Below, in pieces: positions 1-7,153 of a DNA stretch of 7,153 nucleotides. Each line of letters opens with the position of its first letter. Position 1 is the first letter of the stretch. The notes beneath the pieces are model-generated. The model did no database searches and was not told the origin of the DNA. It was given only the letters and a program-made list of their open reading frames with translations. The translations under genes and the position numbers were made by a program. The stretch is from Candidatus Iainarchaeum sp. (GTDB lineage Archaea > Iainarchaeota > Iainarchaeia > Iainarchaeales > CSSED10-239), in contig CALBUD010000072.1 of the NCBI GenBank assembly GCA_937968065.1, forward strand, positions 1 through 7,153. Direction: 5' to 3'.

Positions 1-1488
1 GGAATTACTAAAATATATAAAATTATAAATAAAGAAAATAGAGAAGCTATAGAATTTATATTAGATAGTCAAAGTAAATTAAATTATAAATATGTAACTT
101 TACCAGAAGTTAATGAAGGAACATTTATAACTACCAGAGATATTTTTTCTCAATTTGGATGAAATACTGCTGAAATGAATAATGTATATATTTCTATAGA
201 ACAACAAAAATTATCTCCAAATGAAGAATGAGTTGAAGCAAAATATATAATCCCAGAACAATATGATATTAATGAATTAGATATTTTAAAATCTGGAAAT
301 ATATTAAGAGGTAAATTTCTTATTGAAAATCAAACTATTGATCCCGGATTTAAAGATGTTACTGATGATTTAATTGTTAAATTAAGTGAAAAAAGAAATG
401 TAGATAAACCGGAAGGATTATTTATAAAACGAAAAGGAGATTATAGAGTAAGATATAATGCAAATTTATATCAAACAGATTATACTTCTGATAAAAATAA
501 ATTTGTAAAAGGAAATTCATTTGTAGTTTTAACTTCTGAACAACAAACATCAGAAGGATATTCTAAATCTGGAAACAAGACATATAGAGTAATAGGACGA
601 TCTAATGAAAAAGTAACATTAGAGTATAATGCTTTTAATAAAAATGGTAAATTATTAAGTATTATTAAAGAATTAAAGATTGATGAATTTTCTGAAAAGA
701 TAAAATGATTATATGTTATGAAAGGAAGTCCTGAACATCATCAACTTAAAGAAATTCAAAATAAAAAGGAATTAAAACAAGTTGAAAAAGAAGCAAAACA
801 AAAAGCAACTAATAAAAAAGAATTATACAATACTTTACAATTAAAATTTCAAAAAATTTTTAAAATAAAAGTTGAATTACAAAATCATGATTCAGGTCAA
901 TTTAAAAATAAAAAAGCATGGATTAATGCTGATCCTTTAGGTAAACCTACTATTGTATTAAATACAGCAAATATTAATACATCAGAAGAAGATTTGATTC
1001 ATGAATATTTACATTTATTTTTAATAGCTTTAAAATATAATGAAACTGATCCAAAAGGACCAAGTTCTTATGAAAAATTATTGTTAGATTATAAAAATTC
1101 TTTTGAAGGTAAAACTTCTGAAGATCCAAAAAAACAACAAAGAATTGATTCTATAGTAAATACAAATAATATAAATACATTAGAAGAATTTTTTGTTCAA
1201 GATATTAGTAAAATAATGGTTGAACAAAATTATCAAGACCTTGATGAATTTAACTTTGATAATTTTTATCAAGCAATAAATAATTCTTTAGAAAGTTTAG
1301 AAGTAGAAAATACAACTCCTTTTGCTGATGATTTATTTGGAATATTAACACATAAAATGTCGTCTATATTTCCAAGAATGAGAGATAGTCAAATGAGTAA
1401 TAATAGTTTAATCTTATTTGACGCTAACTTTAGAAATTGATTAGATAACCAAATTAGTAAGAAGAAAATTGAAATTTTATGTCAATAA
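1..1488 (+). CDS. 5'-truncated large protein (495 codons visible). The C-terminal part has a coiled-coil-like segment and an HExxH zincin-like metallopeptidase motif. Requires TGA=Trp.
   Basis: Checked codon by codon, frame 1 is open from base 1 to TAA at 1486-1488. The only interruptions are TGA at 160-162, 229-231, 706-708 and 1438-1440, with no TAA or TAG. Track ORF 718..1440 is the largest standard-code fragment of this gene. The sequence has a Lys/Glu-rich stretch (...LKEIQNKKELKQVEKEAKQKATNKKEL..., about 745-830) and then ...GKPTIVLNTANINTSEEDLIHEYLHLFLIAL, with HEYLH at 1000-1014. Confidence 0.8.
1000..1014 (+). other. HExxH (HEYLH) candidate zinc-metallopeptidase active-site motif within the 1..1488 CDS
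   Basis: The codons are cat gaa tat tta cat. They follow a predicted beta-like stretch (PTIVLNTANI) and an acidic turn (SEEDLI). They are followed by a hydrophobic helix-like stretch (LFLIAL). This is the usual zincin context of strand, then helix carrying HExxH. I could not identify a third metal ligand. Confidence 0.4.
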
Positions 1489-4400
1489 GTCAATGTACAT
1501 ATTCAATTCCTGATGAAAATAAAGTCGGATTAGATTTTATTTCGTTAGTAAAACACTATTATAAATCAACAAAAATATTAAAGAATAGTAATATATTTAG
1601 TTCTGATGAAATAGTAGAAAGTGTTACTAAAAAATTAAAGGAACAATTAAATTTAAAAGATGATATTATCAATAATATAATTACGGATGGTAGAGGTAAT
1701 AAAGTACAATTAGATAAGAACGATATTAAATCTGCTTTGGATTTTATTGTTGCTAATAATTTACAATTATACAAAGAAATTGGTATAAGTCAATCTCAAT
1801 TATCTCCAGAATACATTAGAGAAAATAGAATATTAAATTTTATTAAAAATTCTCTTTCTGATCAAGGATTACGTATTGAAGAAAAAGACACTTTATCAGA
1901 TTTAAAAGTTAAATATGCTGATGAAGTAAAACCAATTGAAGAAGATATAATAGAAACTTTAGAAATAGAAGAAAAAACAAATGCTATTGGTAGAGCTTTA
2001 CATAAGACTTTAAATAATATAGTACTTGACGAAGGAACACTAACTCAAAAAAGTTTATATCATTTACGAAAAGTTTTAGAAGAAAATCAAGAAATATTAG
2101 ATGGAGATTTAGATGATTGAGTAAATCATTTCTCAAATATTGTAAAACAAATTTATTTTTCAATAACATCTAAAGGTAGAGTTTTATCTGAAGTTTGATT
2201 AAGATCCAATAAAGAAGCATTAGCTCAAGTTAAAGGAGCTATAGATATTTTAATTGTAGACGATTTTGGTAATGTTCATATATATGATTTAAAATTATCT
2301 AAACATAAATATGATAATTGAGATTCAGCTAAGAAATTAACAACTGATTGACAGTTAGCGTTTTACAGAGCATTACTTGGACAACATGTTCCAATTAATA
2401 ATACAGAATTAAATTTAATTTCTATTGTAGTTGGAGATTATAATGAATCTAAAAAATTACAATTAAAAAATGTAAGATTAGAACCTATAAGAAATAGATT
2501 AGCTGATGAAACAGGTAAACCTTTACAAATTGTTAATAAAGATTTAAGTACTGATTATGTTCCTGGAAAATTAACATTAGGTAAAATGTATTTAATTGCT
2601 AGGAAATTAATTCCTGAACAAAAGCAATTAGACTACGATCCTAAAAGAACAAAAGATATAAATGATACATTAGCATTAATGTTTCCTAATTATAAACCAT
2701 TAATTAGTAGATCTGAAGCTGCTTTTGATGTAGAAGTTGAATTGAAAAAAGCAATACGAAATTCTGGATTTACTTCAAAATATTCAGATTTTGTTCACGA
2801 AGGAGTAAAAATTAGTAGAAATGGTTGAGTTAGTGTAGATCCTAAAATAGATGAAAGATTTAAAACATCTAAAGAATTAGAAGATGAACTTAGACCAATA
2901 TTACAACATTATGCAGAGTTTGTTAAAAGTAATGAAAATAATATAATTTCTAGACTTAGAAATACTATTTCTCAAGCAATTCAAAACCAATCAGTAACTA
3001 AAATAGATTTAAATAACGCTCAAGAATCTGCATTTGTTAAAAATGTAGTAAATAAATATGTTAATGGAGATTATAGATTAATAAGTAATTCTGAGGAATT
3101 AGATTCTTTAGGTTTAATTCTTTTACAAAATACTAGAACTGGAGCATATGTTATATTAAATGTTACAGTAAATAACTTAAAAGTTCAATATGACGAAAAT
3201 TATTCTATTGCAGATATAGAATATATTAAAGCATTAACTTTTTTCAATTTCTTTGAATCAGAATTACAATTAACTCTGAATAAAATTGAAAATATAGAAG
3301 TTATGAATATTGATGCTAATAGAAATGCTAATAGAAGTTTAGATCATGTTTTTGAAATATACAGTAATACTATATCTCCGACAGGTATAACAAATAATTT
3401 ACATAAAGATCATTTATTGAATAATGTTCAAAGAGCAGAAGAATTAGTTAGACAAGAACACAGAAGAGCTTTTAATGAATTACCTGAAGGTGACAAACAA
3501 GCTATTAAAGAAATTCTTGATGAATATGATGAAGCTGCCGGTAACTTAAGTTTATTTCAATTAAAAGAAATAACTAGAAAATTTGTTAAACAATATCCTG
3601 AATTAGAACAGAAAACATATAAAAGTGGATTTGATTTTAATAACCCAATTGAAAGATTATTTGCTTATATTCAAGTATTATTATTAGCTAAAGCTGATAT
3701 AATTCCAGAAGGAGACCTTGAAGGAAATAATAATTATAATATTAGATTTTCAAACTTAAAAACTTTCTTTTCTGGTTTATTATCTAAAGATATAAGAGTA
3801 TATGATGAAAATGAAAGAAAATTAGGTGGATTAATTGAAGGTTTAAAAACAAGTACTCCTGATAAAATGAAGTCCAAAGATTTACAAAATATTAATGGTC
3901 TTATCAATGGTACTAACAATAGAATAGGTAGTAGATTTATACATGAATCAGTTATACTTAATAATGCTACTAAAAAATACTATAAAGATATAAATTATGA
4001 TTGAGTTTCTGAAAATGTAATTGCTAATCATAGAATAAAATTTAAAAATCTTTGAGTAACAGACAATTTAGGAAATGTAACTGGAGAATGACGTGTAAAA
4101 AATCCATATGATTATAGTCCTGAAAATGCTTTAACTGATGCAGAAAGAGAATATTTAAAACAAATATTATTTAGAATATATATTAATGGAATTAGTTTAC
4201 CTAAAGCTAAATATGATGCTATAGATATTAGTTCTATTGATAGTATTATGAAAACTGCTCCAGAATCTATGATTGAAAAAATTAATAAAGGTACTTATTT
4301 TGAAATGCCTATTATTAGATCTCAACAATGAAATAGATATGATAAAATTTGAGGAAGAGGATATCAAGGAATATTAGATACTGTTAAGTCTTTAGGTCAT

Positions 4401-6212
4401 GAAATCCATGATTATGTTGACGGAAGAGAATTAGAACCAGAAGAACTTCATAATATTAAAAAAGAAGCTGGGTTTTATGAAATGTACGATGTTTATGCTA
4501 AACAAAGTAGACAATTTATTCAAGATAAAGTTGCTGAAAAGGGAGAAGCATATTGAGAGTTAGATTTAGATGCTATTGCACATAGAGTAATTTTTAATAA
4601 AATAAGAAAAAAATATTTAGACAATATTCTTCCCGTAATCAGTGCATATATTTGAACTGCAAAAATTAGTGGAGGAAAACAAAATATAGATATTTCTAAT
4701 GAATTAGAATATGCTTTAAGAAGATTAAAATTAGCATCTAAAGATGAACATATTATTGATGAAGATTTTGAAGATGTAGTAAGTTTAGCAGGAACAGCAA
4801 AAAGAATTACTACTAAAGCAATGTTAGCATTTCGTCCTGCATTACTAGTTAAAGAATTAACTATTGGTCTTTATAAAAATTATATGTTAGCAGCAACTCA
4901 AATGTTAGGTGAAGATCAATTTAATATGTCAGATTTAACTAAAGCTATAGGTAAATTAATGAGTATTGATAACAAATTTAGTGCAGAATGAAATTTAATT
5001 GATATGATTAATTCTGAATATAGGTTTGCAAACTTAGAATTGGGTACACTTCCTAATAAATATAAAACTAATAGAAAAGTTGGATTTTTTATGGGATTTG
5101 GTAAATGGATGTTTTCTATGAATACTATTCCTGATTATTATAATAGACTTTCTTTATTCTTAGCTAAAATGATTCATGATGGTTCATATGATGCCCATGT
5201 TATGGATGAAAAAGGACATTTAATATATGATCCTAGAAAAGATAAAAGATTTTCATATTATTTTGAAAATAGAGACAAACATAAAAATTCAAAAGGTCAA
5301 TATATTCCGGCTAAAAATGATTCAAAATATAATAAACAAAGAAATCTTTATTTGTTATTAATTAATCAAATATCAAAAGAAAGACAAATTCAGGGTGATG
5401 ATATTTTTACAGAAGAAGATTTAATTGATAAAGCTTATTCAGAACAAGAACGTAATTCATTTAAATCATTTACTGATACAGTATATGGTTATTATGATAA
5501 AGATTCTCAAGCAGAATGACATAATGCGTGATATGGAATGTTGTATTTACAATTCTTACAATTCTGACCTGGTAAAATGAGTTTATGATTTGGAACACAA
5601 TATAATAAGAAATTAAGTCCTATTGGAAAACATGTTCATAAAACTCAAAAAGACGCTAATGGTAAAGAACAATTAATGTATAAAAAACCTCTTTATGAAG
5701 ATCCTGCTAATCCTGATGAAATTACAGGATGAGAACCAACTACTGAAGACACTGGGGATCCAATATTAGAATGACAAGGTACAGCTTACGAAGGATTATA
5801 TTTTTCAATGTTACATACATTAAGAGATATTCTTAAAGGAGATTGAGAAAATATTAAAAATGAAAAAGTTAGAAGTAGAAGAGCATTATATGGTTTAGCT
5901 GAAGGATTTTTAATGTATGCTTTTTTCAAATTCTTACAAATGTTATTTGAAGCATGAATTTCACAAAATGGAACTGATGGTATAAATGGAGAAACAATGG
6001 AATTTATGGCATCTGTTAATAGAAAAGTATTAAATGAATCAAATGTATTAGACAATACTTTTGGAGCATTAAGATCTGAACCAGCTTTTTGAACTTATAC
6101 TATGCAAGTATCTCAAGATATGTATGATGTAATGACAGGATCTGGAAATAGAACTCCTCAAAAATTATTAGCTCGAAATATTAGAGCTTTTGAATTTTGA
6201 GATAATCATTAA
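1479..6212 (+). CDS. Giant 1577-aa protein with an N-proximal RecB/Cas4-family PD-(D/E)xK nuclease domain. The rest is unassigned, with an aromatic/Trp-rich C-terminal region. Requires TGA=Trp.
   Basis: Track ORFs 1479..2120, 2586..2828, 3303..4004 and 5004..5519 all lie in frame 3. I translated the gaps between them and every interruption up to TAA at 6210-6212 is TGA. There are 23 in total: 2118, 2196, 2319, 2349, 2826, 4002, 4053, 4089, 5517, 5529, 5565, 5586, 5730, 5772, 5844, 5955, 6090 and 6198, plus five more between 4300 and 5000. No frameshift is needed. ATG 1479 is the first ATG after the in-frame TAA at 1458-1460, and it overlaps the stop of the upstream gene. Only one TGG codon occurs in this gene (GKWMF). 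Confidence 0.85.
2190..2366 (+). other. PD-(D/E)xK nuclease core motifs (RecB/Cas4/AddB-like family) inside the giant CDS
   Basis: The translation is ...LSEVWLRSNKEALAQVKGAIDILIVDDFGNVHIYDLKLSKHKYDNWDSAKKLTTDWQLAFYRALL. GAID (Asp at 2244-2246) matches the GxxD motif II. IYDLK (Asp 2286-2288, Lys 2292-2294) matches the hhDxK motif III. QLAFY (Gln 2352-2354, Tyr 2364-2366) matches the QxxxY motif IV typical of RecB-family nucleases. A candidate motif I Glu lies at 2190-2192. There is no Cys cluster, so this is not an Fe-S Cas4-type variant. Confidence 0.7.
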
Positions 6213-6255
6213 AAAAATAAGCCCGACCACATTACGTGATCGGGCTTATTTATTT
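6211..6255. terminator. Bidirectional rho-independent terminator between the convergent giant gene and the SLT gene
   Basis: A GC-rich hairpin has arms AAGCCCGAcCAC (6219-6230) and GTGaTCGGGCTT (6236-6247), with one mismatch and a loop of about 5 nt (ATTAC). An A7 run lies upstream (6211-6217), which reads as T7 after the hairpin on the minus strand. TTATTTATTT lies downstream (6246-6255). The element sits 7-8 nt after the + strand TAA and about 16 nt after the minus-strand TAA. Confidence 0.8.
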
Positions 6256-6262
6256 AAATGAA

Positions 6263-7000
6263 TTAGGCAGGATACATTTTAAGGTATTCTGTTATATGTG
6301 TTTTATTGGCGTCTCTAAATCCTTGCTTTGCTAAAGGAGAATTTCGTGTACCAAGAAAATAATCTTTAACCGTACCTGCACCTAATAAGTGTGCAGCAGC
6401 TCTAATACCATTTTTTGTTATTTTAATTCCATCAACTGTTTTTCCACTAAACTCTTCAATTATATCTTTTAATCTACGTTCATTAAGTCTAGCTAATTCT
6501 AATGCTCCTTGATGTTGAACCAAAGTATCTTTAAATTGTTCTTTTGTTTTACCAATATCTTTTAAAGCTATGTTTCCAAATTGATATAAACCATAATAAC
6601 CAAGTCTATTTGTAACATCTGGTCTATAACTACTTTCTTTAGCTGCTAATTTTATTAAATAATCTTTATCTTCATCAGATATAGATAATCCTTTTATTTC
6701 GTCAATTATTTTATTAGATACTTCACTCATAGGTCTTAATATTTCAGGTGTTAATTCGTAATCATTAAAAACTTGTTTTGGTTTAGAAACTTCAGGAATA
6801 CTTATATTACTTAAATCTCATTTTTTTGGTTTATCTATGGATTTAGTTCCTTCAATAGAAGGTATATCTTGTTCAGTTATATTAAAATAATTTCTAAAAT
6901 AGGTATTATCAGGAAGAGCTATATTATAAGTATTATAATAATCTAACATCTCTTCTTTATTATTTAAACTTATAGGTTTAAATTCTGCAAATTGTTCCAT
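6263..7000 (-). CDS. Lytic transglycosylase / lysozyme-like (SLT domain) protein of 245 aa from ATG 7000 (251 aa if the TTG at 7018 is used). Has one in-frame TGA=Trp. Candidate endolysin or virion-associated peptidoglycan hydrolase.
   Basis: Track ORFs 6818..7018 and 6263..6730 are in the same minus-strand frame. They are separated only by TGA (6820..6818), and the 87 nt between them contain no stop (...KPKK-W-DLSNISIPEVSKPKQVFNDYELTPEILRP-MSEV...). The stop is TAA (6265..6263). The C-terminal half carries SLT-like motifs: AAKESSYRP (catalytic-type Glu-Ser, Glu at 6637..6635), GYYGLYQFG (the GLxQ motif, about 6599..6575) and AAHLLGAG (6397..6374, equivalent to the AYNxG region). There is no signal peptide or TM segment at the N-terminus. 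Confidence 0.8.
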
Positions 7001-7022
7001 AATTAATAATTTTATCAATTAG

Positions 7023-7054
7023 CAAAGTTAAATATATATTTTCATAAAATTATA
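7023..7054 (-). promoter_or_regulatory. Candidate promoter region for the SLT gene: a Bacteroidota-type -7 element TAnnTTTG and/or a TATAAT box
   Basis: The minus strand reads 5'-GATTTTTATATAATTTTATGAAAATATATATTTAACTTTGCTAATTGATAAAATTATTAATT-ATG. TAACTTTG (7030..7023) matches TAnnTTTG and ends 22 nt before ATG 7000. TATAAT lies at 7054..7049. There is no clean upstream TTTG at the expected spacing, and the AT-rich background makes chance matches likely. No Shine-Dalgarno-like purine tract precedes the ATG. Confidence 0.25.
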
Positions 7055-7062
7055 TAAAAATC

Positions 7063-7108
7063 AAAAAAAATAGGGGAATAAAGCAAATACGCTTCATTCC
7101 CCATTTTT
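7063..7108 (-). terminator. Rho-independent terminator, probably ending a minus-strand transcript that enters from the right edge. It also has a weaker T-run on the + strand.
   Basis: The hairpin arms are GGGGAATaAAGC (7073-7084) and GCTTcATTCCCC (7091-7102), giving 12 bp with one mismatch and a 6-nt loop (AAATAC). An A8 run at 7063-7070 reads as T8 following the hairpin on the minus strand. A T5 run lies at 7104-7108 on the + strand. These are the only GC-rich islands in an otherwise AT-rich spacer. Confidence 0.65.
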
Positions 7109-7153
7109 GTTGTGCAAATTATTAAATAATCATTAATTAAAAAAAATAATTAA

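Follow-up and report, generated by a model that had tools for sequence, protein, structure and literature searches.

The window analysed here, a 7,153-nucleotide stretch of DNA (contig CALBUD010000072.1, positions 1 to 7,153 of the forward strand), is largely taken up by one giant open reading frame (ORF), which overlaps the end of a second ORF upstream and faces a convergent gene for an SLT lytic transglycosylase downstream. The product of the giant ORF comprises a nuclease module, a middle region, and a C-terminal module, and we consider it to be probably an internal virion protein of a crAss-like phage. The features of the giant ORF are listed below by nucleotide position in the window, with the residue numbers of its product in parentheses.

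1479-6212, + strand: giant ORF, 1577 codons followed by the stop codon TAA (6210-6212), TGA read as Trp
1479-2468, + strand: predicted nuclease module (residues 1 to ~330), a helical lead-in and then the PD-(D/E)xK core; homologous to crAss001 gp47 residues ~1572-1882
1494-1496, + strand: Cys6, the sole cysteine of the giant protein
1971-2390, + strand: match to Pfam PDDEXK_1 (PF12705; residues 165-304), E 5.7e-8, 33.4 bits (cut-off 22)
2244-2246, 2286-2288, and 2292-2294, + strand: predicted catalytic residues D256, D270, and K272, respectively, which are joined by E238
2352-2354 and 2364-2366, + strand: predicted catalytic residues Q292 and Y296
2676-3818, + strand: middle alpha/beta region (residues ~400-780), family-specific, with invariant G545 and N551
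3816-6209, + strand: mainly helical C-terminal module (residues ~780-1577), shared with phi14:2 gp65 (GenBank gp076) and crAss001 gp49
5130-5261, + strand: signature PDYYNR (residues 1218-1223)...DG..DAH...YDxxKDxRF (to residue 1261)
5904-5960, + strand: hydrophobic helix (residues 1476-1494), ~100 residues before the C-terminus

The giant ORF is a single gene in which TGA is decoded as Trp

The frame at 1479-6212 contains 23 in-frame TGA codons and not a single TAA or TAG across its 1577 codons. At the G+C content of the window DNA (24%), ~124 TAA/TAG codons would be expected from base composition in a frame of this length, and the probability of finding none is ~7e-57; in the remaining two frames across this stretch, they number 146 and 178. 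We noted that the homologue P0008, which is encoded on a standard-code contig by a gene with 22 TGG and no TGA codons, has Trp at 13 of the 23 sites at which the giant ORF has TGA and Phe, Ile, Leu, or Met at 7 further sites. Among the Trp codons of the giant ORF itself, TGG accounts for 1 of 24. Code 25, in which TGA specifies Gly, was ruled out because no TGA position is Gly-rich, i.e. the alignment has no Gly-dominated TGA column. We conclude that the giant ORF is a genuine gene and that its TGA codons are decoded as Trp.

A preliminary description of the window, made from its letters and translations, had proposed this 1577-residue ORF under code 4 and had raised the question of whether it was really several genes. 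The ORF is borne out by the codon counts and by the Trp residues in the TGA columns, and the several-genes alternative is refuted: we conclude that the giant ORF is one gene, because its homologues are nearly all one collinear protein of 1450-1700 amino acids, and promoter-like sites within it show no excess (52 observed compared with 57 expected). The related view that the ORF is spurious (a set of separate genes, or a read-through pseudogene, with TGA as true stops) can point to the bacterial code (table 11), under which the span falls apart into ORFs of 56-233 amino acids. It is contradicted by the uninterrupted run of codons (P ~1e-56), by the alignment of the TGA sites with Trp residues of TGG-encoded homologues, and by the full-length collinear homologues held by standard-code genomes, and we give it practically no chance of being correct.

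The giant protein defines a large metagenomic family

A word-indexed protein search identified nine full-length homologues (P0001-P0009) of 1535-1575 amino acids with 39-69% identity to the giant protein, together with two distant ones; a profile re-search of the same database gave no additional homologues. From the region that follows the nuclease (residue 400 onwards), we built a family profile and searched 1.84 billion cluster representatives (clusters at 50% identity) with it; 1059 of them matched at E<=1e-3, of which 438 reached E<=1e-30. Of the 168 family proteins fetched, 132 are 1400-1750 amino acids long, and the profile typically aligns in one collinear stretch from residue ~400 to the C-terminus. 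P0001, which is full length and 69% identical to the window protein, served as the proxy for structure prediction and for the search of the representatives.

When distant members served as tblastn queries on 50,697 phage records, the only matches were three unannotated metagenomic records named 'Bacteriophage sp.', all from human faeces. Megablast of the window against phages and phmmer of the giant protein against PDB sequences gave no match, and an exact 65-mer of the window is not present in IMG/VR. Overall, the window delimits a large family seen in metagenomes only, which comprises 1059 or more clusters (50% identity) and in which the nuclease site is intact.

The N-terminal module is a predicted RecB/Cas4-like nuclease

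The PDDEXK_1 match of the giant protein is shared by 11 of 12 homologues searched against Pfam, and the residues E238, D256, D270-x-K272, and Q292-x3-Y296 are kept in 34-45 of 48 diverse members, the range for D256, D270, K272, Q292, and Y296 being 38-45 of 48. Further, Lys285 (K284 in P0001 numbering) is invariant in all 48. When a family profile was compared with PDB sequences, it matched, for the nuclease region, PD-(D/E)xK nucleases exclusively (ACE1, the AdnAB-type helicase-nuclease 6ppu/7sjr, and, more weakly, Cas4 4ic1). The AlphaFold 2 (AF2) model of P0001 residues 1-800 has a mean predicted local distance difference test score (pLDDT) of 84.7 and a predicted template modelling score (pTM) of 0.80, with pLDDT mostly 86-97 at residues ~40-350 of the nuclease module and 62-80 at its N-terminus. 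The sole Foldseek matches of this model in the PDB were Exo5, AdnA/B, Cas4 (SSO0001), ACE1, MGME1, and RecE, which align over ~190-230 residues in a restriction-endonuclease-like alpha/beta fold with probabilities mostly of 0.8-1.0 and E values of 0.0065-0.16. A hidden Markov model (HMM) of the nuclease module (A4) also matched crAss001 gp47 with E 1.8e-17, and hhalign gave this pair a probability of 94%. We conclude that the domain is real and that, judged by its sequence, it is a predicted nuclease of the RecB/Cas4-like PD-(D/E)xK type with an intact, conserved active site.

The four-Cys 4Fe-4S cluster of the Cas4/AddB/Exo5 subgroup is not present, the whole protein having one Cys. This residue, Cys6, lies outside any Fe-S motif and is invariant in 46 of 46 diverse homologues, along with Tyr8. 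A motif scan of the giant ORF for Walker A, HExxH, and CxxC was negative, and the one D.D.D string that the ORF contains (DGDLD, residue 208) lies within the nuclease module. Pfam and PHROG searches found no other domain, PHROGs giving nothing significant at all. Thus, the preliminary description was correct in placing a PD-(D/E)xK core at residues 238-296, in counting a single Cys, and in regarding the nuclease as the sole domain that ordinary domain searches recognise. Several other identities were considered and rejected for the giant ORF: a virion RNA polymerase (RNAP), as there is no DFDxD motif and no similarity to phi14:2 gp077 or crAss001 gp50; a helicase or a methylase, on domain, motif, and profile searches; and a tape-measure or tail protein, as there is no Pfam or PHROG tail match.

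The C-terminal module is related to virion proteins of cultured crassviruses

The middle region is confidently predicted in the AF2 model of P0001 and diverges in one subgroup of homologues; Foldseek found no match to it in the PDB, and hhalign none among the giant proteins of crAss001 or phi14:2. The model of the C-terminal 818 residues of P0001 (pLDDT 85.6, pTM 0.87) is predominantly helical with a small beta region. In the PDB, Foldseek found no relative of it (best E 1.9), and the TolC-like and transporter helical bundles among these hits were discarded as noise. Against the predicted viral structures of BFVD, however, the same model gave 22 matches at E<=1e-3, and those with names come mostly from crAss-like viruses or from the Cellulophaga crassviruses phi14:2 and phi17:2. 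One of them is the 'structural protein' S0A048 of phi14:2 (1421 residues; E 3.5e-9, TMq 0.55), which is GenBank Phi14:2_gp076 (AGO48954) and gp65 in Yutin/Drobysheva numbering. Also among the matches are family members that carry the annotation 'Exonuclease V [Siphoviridae sp. gcode 4]' and crAss-like proteins labelled 'putative RNA-polymerase subunit', 'PD-(D/E)XK endonuclease-like', and 'Exonuclease'.

Sequence profiles point to the same group of proteins. With hhalign, the C-terminal module aligned with the C-terminal ~390 residues of crAss001 gp49 over 362 columns (probability 90%, E 1.8e-6) and with an alignment of the gp49 family (84%, E 8e-6), whereas twelve other giant crassvirus proteins used as controls gave E>0.07. 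The signature common to the module and gp49 is PDYYNR...DA[HY]...[YW]D...[YH]G.Y[DN], of which gp49 retains the part NR...DAY...WD; within the family, R1223, Y1250, D1255, R1257, and G1337 of the module are invariant. Further, among 132 full-length members, 124 have their 19-residue stretch of highest hydrophobicity at a distance of 98-152 residues from the C-terminus, and gp49 and gp076 have such a stretch at the equivalent place. The corresponding helix could be membrane-inserting or a buried core helix.

These results change the picture of the ~1250 residues that had been described as unrecognisable, for the C-terminal ~800 are homologous to a module of crassvirus virion proteins (phi14:2 gp65 and crAss001 gp49). 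They also bear on the question, raised in the same description, of whether homology to a characterised family would make the protein ordinary: this applies in part, as the C-terminal module joins a family that is characterised solely as virion-packaged and RNAP-associated. The module therein is a confidently predicted fold of ~800 residues without a solved relative.

The helical character of the protein raises the possibility of a channel-forming role as an ejectosome or tail-internal protein, comparable to T7 gp16 or N4 gp51/gp52, with the nuclease as a minor or inactive accessory. Its large size and mostly helical build, the conserved hydrophobic helix near the C-terminus, and the adjacent SLT gene are consistent with such a role, as are weak Foldseek matches of the C-terminal module to a KPP25 structural protein (E 0.027), an RSB3 internal core protein (E 0.19), and fragments annotated 'large polyvalent protein associated domain' (E 0.003-0.05). 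The matches to T7-like core proteins are not significant, however, and the active site of the nuclease is strongly conserved and therefore no dead passenger. In crAss001, moreover, the cargo proteins proposed to span the membrane are gp45 and gp46, not gp49 (PMC10172136, PMC13434306). We consider a primarily channel-forming role unlikely.

The giant gene lies, in its relatives, beside virion RNAP genes and is recoded like late genes

The features that flank the giant gene in the window are as follows.

1-1488, + strand: upstream ORF, cut at the window edge (C-terminal 495 amino acids), with HEYLH (HExxH) at nucleotides 1000-1014
6215-6251, either strand: hairpin between the convergent stop codons, its perfect 17-bp stem including 7 G-C pairs, and T-runs present on either strand
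6263-7000, - strand: convergent gene for a 245-residue SLT lytic transglycosylase (Pfam SLT, E 1.8e-4)

The upstream ORF is homologous to a protein of 1198-1298 residues that precedes the giant gene in contigs of its relatives. Its HEYLH motif is conserved and is also found in the 1198-residue orthologue of contig L002, the one of five related contigs in which the HExxH of the protein at this position was checked. In hhalign comparisons, the motif of the upstream ORF aligned with those of phi14:2 gp076 (E 0.17) and crAss001 gp47 (E 0.51), although neither match is significant, and at the level of this motif the ORF may encode a zincin-like peptidase as found within phi14:2 gp65 and crAss001 gp47. 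The ATG of the giant gene overlaps the end of the upstream ORF by 10 nucleotides (1479-1488, TTATGTCAATAA); the junction is likewise a 10-nucleotide overlap in L011 and L013, a 7-nucleotide overlap in L003, and a 1-nucleotide gap in L002. This tight junction suggests translational coupling. The upstream proteins all have a Cys near the C-terminus, which the overlapping start (xxATGT) can explain where the genes overlap; the L002 protein retains this Cys and has no gene overlap. Downstream, the hairpin at 6215-6251 looks like a bidirectional intrinsic terminator, and another hairpin that resembles a terminator is located at 7102-7073 (- strand), upstream of the SLT gene. The PHROG match of the SLT gene is to tail lysozyme or transglycosylase.

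Conservation of the gene neighbourhood had been suggested as a check, and the order is kept in all five related contigs (L001, L002, L003, L011, and L013): giant RNAP genes on the + strand, a gene for ~800-1300 residues, the giant gene, and then a convergent block. In the relatives, this block contains genes for DNA ligase, ThyX, dUTPase, thioredoxin, polynucleotide kinase, and RNA ligase; in L011, the closest relative, it opens with an orthologue of the SLT gene (14760-15500), as in the window. The DFDID protein of L002 is 35% identical over 103 residues to the catalytic region of the phi14:2 virion RNAP and also matches crAss001 gp50. This disposes of the earlier suggestion that the giant protein might be an unusual polymerase, as the DFDID RNAP gene is separate and lies upstream in the related contigs. 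In L002, a standard-code contig of 163 kb, DFDID is near the N-terminus of a 1121-residue ORF that starts with TTG (3036-6401) and follows ORFs of 987+, 476, and 190 residues, and the virion RNAP appears to be split; in L011, by contrast, a single ORF of at least 3000 residues is found. ORFs for LAGLIDADG endonucleases interrupt the RNAP region in L003 (2475-3164) and L013 (2726-3424), and a further one in L011 (18983-19855) lies between two ORFs with weak matches to RNA ligase families (RNA_ligase, PHA02142). These inserts fit the intron-rich crAss-like groups (PMC7886860).

The window and its close relatives were read within 10-kb flanks, and crAss-like marker genes were seen on MT835470, a 117-kb phage with a homologue of 23% identity in the same position: TerL (E 2e-27), portal (E 2e-13), and Tstab (E 8e-4), along with PolA. 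Further family members are found on contigs of 163-165 kb. A Mollicutes-phage origin of the window was ruled out on account of the adjacent gene for an SLT peptidoglycan hydrolase and the crAss-like relatives.

The giant gene has 18-20 TGA and 2-4 TGG codons in L003, L011, and L013, whereas the neighbouring replication genes of these relatives use TGG exclusively; L002 and MT835470 follow the standard code throughout. The SLT gene has 1 TGA and no TGG in the window, and 2 TGA and no TGG in L011; it is thus 'late' by its code while lying at the edge of the early block. Crassviruses, those of the Zeta group in particular, have genomes of 145-192 kb with intron-riddled RNAP genes, and among close relatives the code switches between TGA, TAG, and standard usage, with recoding limited to late genes (PMC7886860). 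From the 163-165-kb contigs, the code switching, and the LAGLIDADG inserts of its relatives, we infer that the window is of Zeta type. Because the giant gene is recoded in the manner of late genes, its code indirectly supports the view that its product is virion cargo.

These findings also bear on the alternative that the giant protein is an unpackaged exonuclease of replication or recombination (RecE/lambda-Exo/AddAB-like), the C-terminal part of which serves as a scaffold for replication partners. The closest solved relatives of its nuclease domain are indeed nucleases of recombination and repair (AdnAB, RecE, Exo5, and MGME1), some family members match PHROG 'exonuclease' families, and the giant gene adjoins the replication block. 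However, the giant gene is on the + strand with the block of virion RNAP genes and runs convergent to the replication genes, with a strong hairpin between them, and it has the late-gene code that the replication genes lack. Further, the C-terminal 800 residues match proteins detected in virions, and the replication block of crAss-like phages has separate PDDEXK genes, e.g. crAss001 gp70 (PMC7886860). On balance, a role as a replication exonuclease appears quite improbable.

Putative role of the giant protein in infection

Overall, we propose that the giant ORF encodes a late-expressed internal virion (cargo/ejection) protein of a crAss-like phage that carries an N-terminal RecB/Cas4-like nuclease, and we put the probability of this reading at roughly 0.7. 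It agrees with a guess of the preliminary description (a virion-packaged, ejected, or polyvalent protein), which is the best supported of its options given the homology of the C-terminal module, the synteny with RNAP genes, and the late-gene code. Packaging and ejection are derived from homology and synteny with virion-detected proteins of two cultured crassviruses, and are put forward as probable by analogy: virions have been found to contain gp65 and gp67 in phi14:2, and gp47, gp49, and gp50 in crAss001 (bioRxiv 10.1101/2020.03.07.982082; PMC10172136).

Several observations weigh against this proposal. No virion proteomics exists for the clade, no cultured relative is known (tblastn, 50,697 phage records), and the window itself contains neither an RNAP gene nor a capsid marker. 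The structural models were made from P0001, which is 69% identical to the window protein, and not from the window protein. The hhalign probability for gp49 drops to 34% under another column setting, and phi14:2 gp076 yields weak collinear matches; the link to gp49/gp65 is specific, with moderate support from sequence, and draws largely on the Foldseek comparison with predicted structures. The hydrophobic helix is weak in the window protein (Kyte-Doolittle value 1.25). Finally, the cargo proteins of phi14:2 have no detectable PDDEXK domain, and a cargo nuclease is thus not universal.

If the giant protein is virion cargo, it would be synthesised late, once TGA is decoded as Trp, and packaged into the capsid alongside the virion RNAP and the HExxH protein. 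At the onset of infection, it would be expelled through the tail in a partly unfolded state, as proposed for gp47, gp49, and gp50 (PMC10172136), and the C-terminal module with its hydrophobic helix might then help to assemble or anchor an ejection or early-transcription complex at the envelope. In the newly infected cell, the nuclease would act on DNA, breaking down that of the host or of competitors or else processing the entering phage DNA. In vitro, the crAss-type RNAP is efficient on single-stranded or denatured DNA and barely active on native double-stranded DNA, and no promoter motif is seen for its early transcripts (bioRxiv 10.1101/2020.03.07.982082). These two properties make phage DNA an attractive target: the ejected nuclease might resect or nick the incoming DNA end and so provide a single-stranded template for the virion RNAP, a step during which the gp49/gp65-type module may hold the nuclease in place. 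This priming of transcription is speculative, and we regard it as improbable; the early region is tens of kb long, and phi14:2 manages without a detectable cargo nuclease, both of which speak against it.

Comparison with known systems

The PDDEXK domain of giant crAss-like proteins encoded in the transcription block was noted by Yutin et al. in 2021 (PMC7886860). The window therefore provides a further member of a group of giant RNAP-associated virion proteins that is already in the literature and not a new kind of system. In this respect, the preliminary description went too far in holding that the architecture could not be named and that the protein was the best candidate for something undescribed, the more so as the nuclease module is also found in gp47. 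What is added here is the link of the C-terminal half to the gp65/gp49 module and that of the nuclease module to gp47, together with the size of the family and a confidently modelled fold that lacks a solved counterpart. The interest of the family lies in the fact that the giant proteins packed beside the crassvirus virion RNAP, the polymerase aside, await functional assignment, and crassvirus ejection proteins are still listed as structurally unresolved in a 2026 paper (PMC13434306).

In its fold and in the motifs D, (D/E)xK, and QxxxY, the giant protein agrees with the RecB/Cas4/AddB/Exo5-type nucleases, but differs from them in that it has neither the 4Fe-4S Cys cluster nor a helicase partner domain and in that its nuclease domain is embedded in a virion-type protein of 1577 residues. 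With the polyvalent proteins described by Iyer et al. in 2017 (PMC5512222), it has in common, as a concept, a large multidomain build, a position among virion genes, a predicted injection with the DNA, the combination of an enzymatic domain with helical modules, and the association with a virion RNAP and a putative zincin peptidase; the weak Foldseek matches of its C-terminal module link it loosely to such large internal or 'polyvalent' proteins of other tailed phages. It differs in that Pfam searches detected no LPD, MuF, or ArdC domain and in that one enzymatic domain is recognisable.

The cargo proteins of the two cultured crassviruses are closer counterparts. Like the giant gene, the gene for phi14:2 gp65 directly follows that for the virion RNAP (gp66, i.e. 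gp077, 2180 residues) and is the last before a convergent replication block; its product has a matching C-terminal helical module, with a hydrophobic helix ~130 residues from the C-terminus. Drobysheva et al. reported a zincin-like protease domain in gp65, which is found in virions, and in some phages a single polyprotein comprises the RNAP, gp65, and gp67 (bioRxiv 10.1101/2020.03.07.982082). The two proteins differ in their N-terminal parts: gp65 has an HExxH motif (HEIMH, residue 245) and no detectable PDDEXK domain, whereas the giant protein has a PDDEXK domain and a middle region of ~380 residues, and the HExxH motif, instead of being in the same polypeptide as in gp65, is in the separate upstream gene. 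In sequence, the two are barely similar enough for the relationship to be detected. The 'RNA polymerase-associated' cargo protein gp49 of crAss001 (AXQ62692, 1349 residues) is similarly encoded directly after the DxDxD RNAP gp50, and its C-terminal ~390 residues align with the module of the giant protein by profile (84-90%), but a nuclease domain is absent from gp49, and the ~880 residues at its N-terminus are unrelated to the giant protein. Conversely, crAss001 gp47 (AXQ62690, 2341 residues), likewise labelled 'RNA polymerase-associated' and a 262-kDa virion protein assigned to the cargo zone of the capsid (PMC10172136), has the same nuclease module at residues ~1572-1882; here, however, the nuclease is internal, following ~1570 unrelated residues and preceding an HExxH at residue 2157, and there is no gp49-like C-terminal module. 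The arrangements in the three lineages are as follows.

crAss001: gp47, ~1570 residues, then nuclease, then HExxH (residue 2157); gp49, ~880 residues, then C-terminal module
phi14:2: gp65, HExxH (residue 245), then C-terminal module; no detectable PDDEXK in the cargo proteins
Window lineage: upstream gene, HExxH motif after a preceding part; giant gene, nuclease, then middle region, then C-terminal module

This comparison reveals a shuffling of modules between lineages, in which a gp47-type nuclease is fused to a gp49/gp65-type C-terminal module in the window lineage and the HExxH motif resides in the neighbouring gene. Because the same modules recur in shuffled arrangements across these lineages, we argue that they act together.

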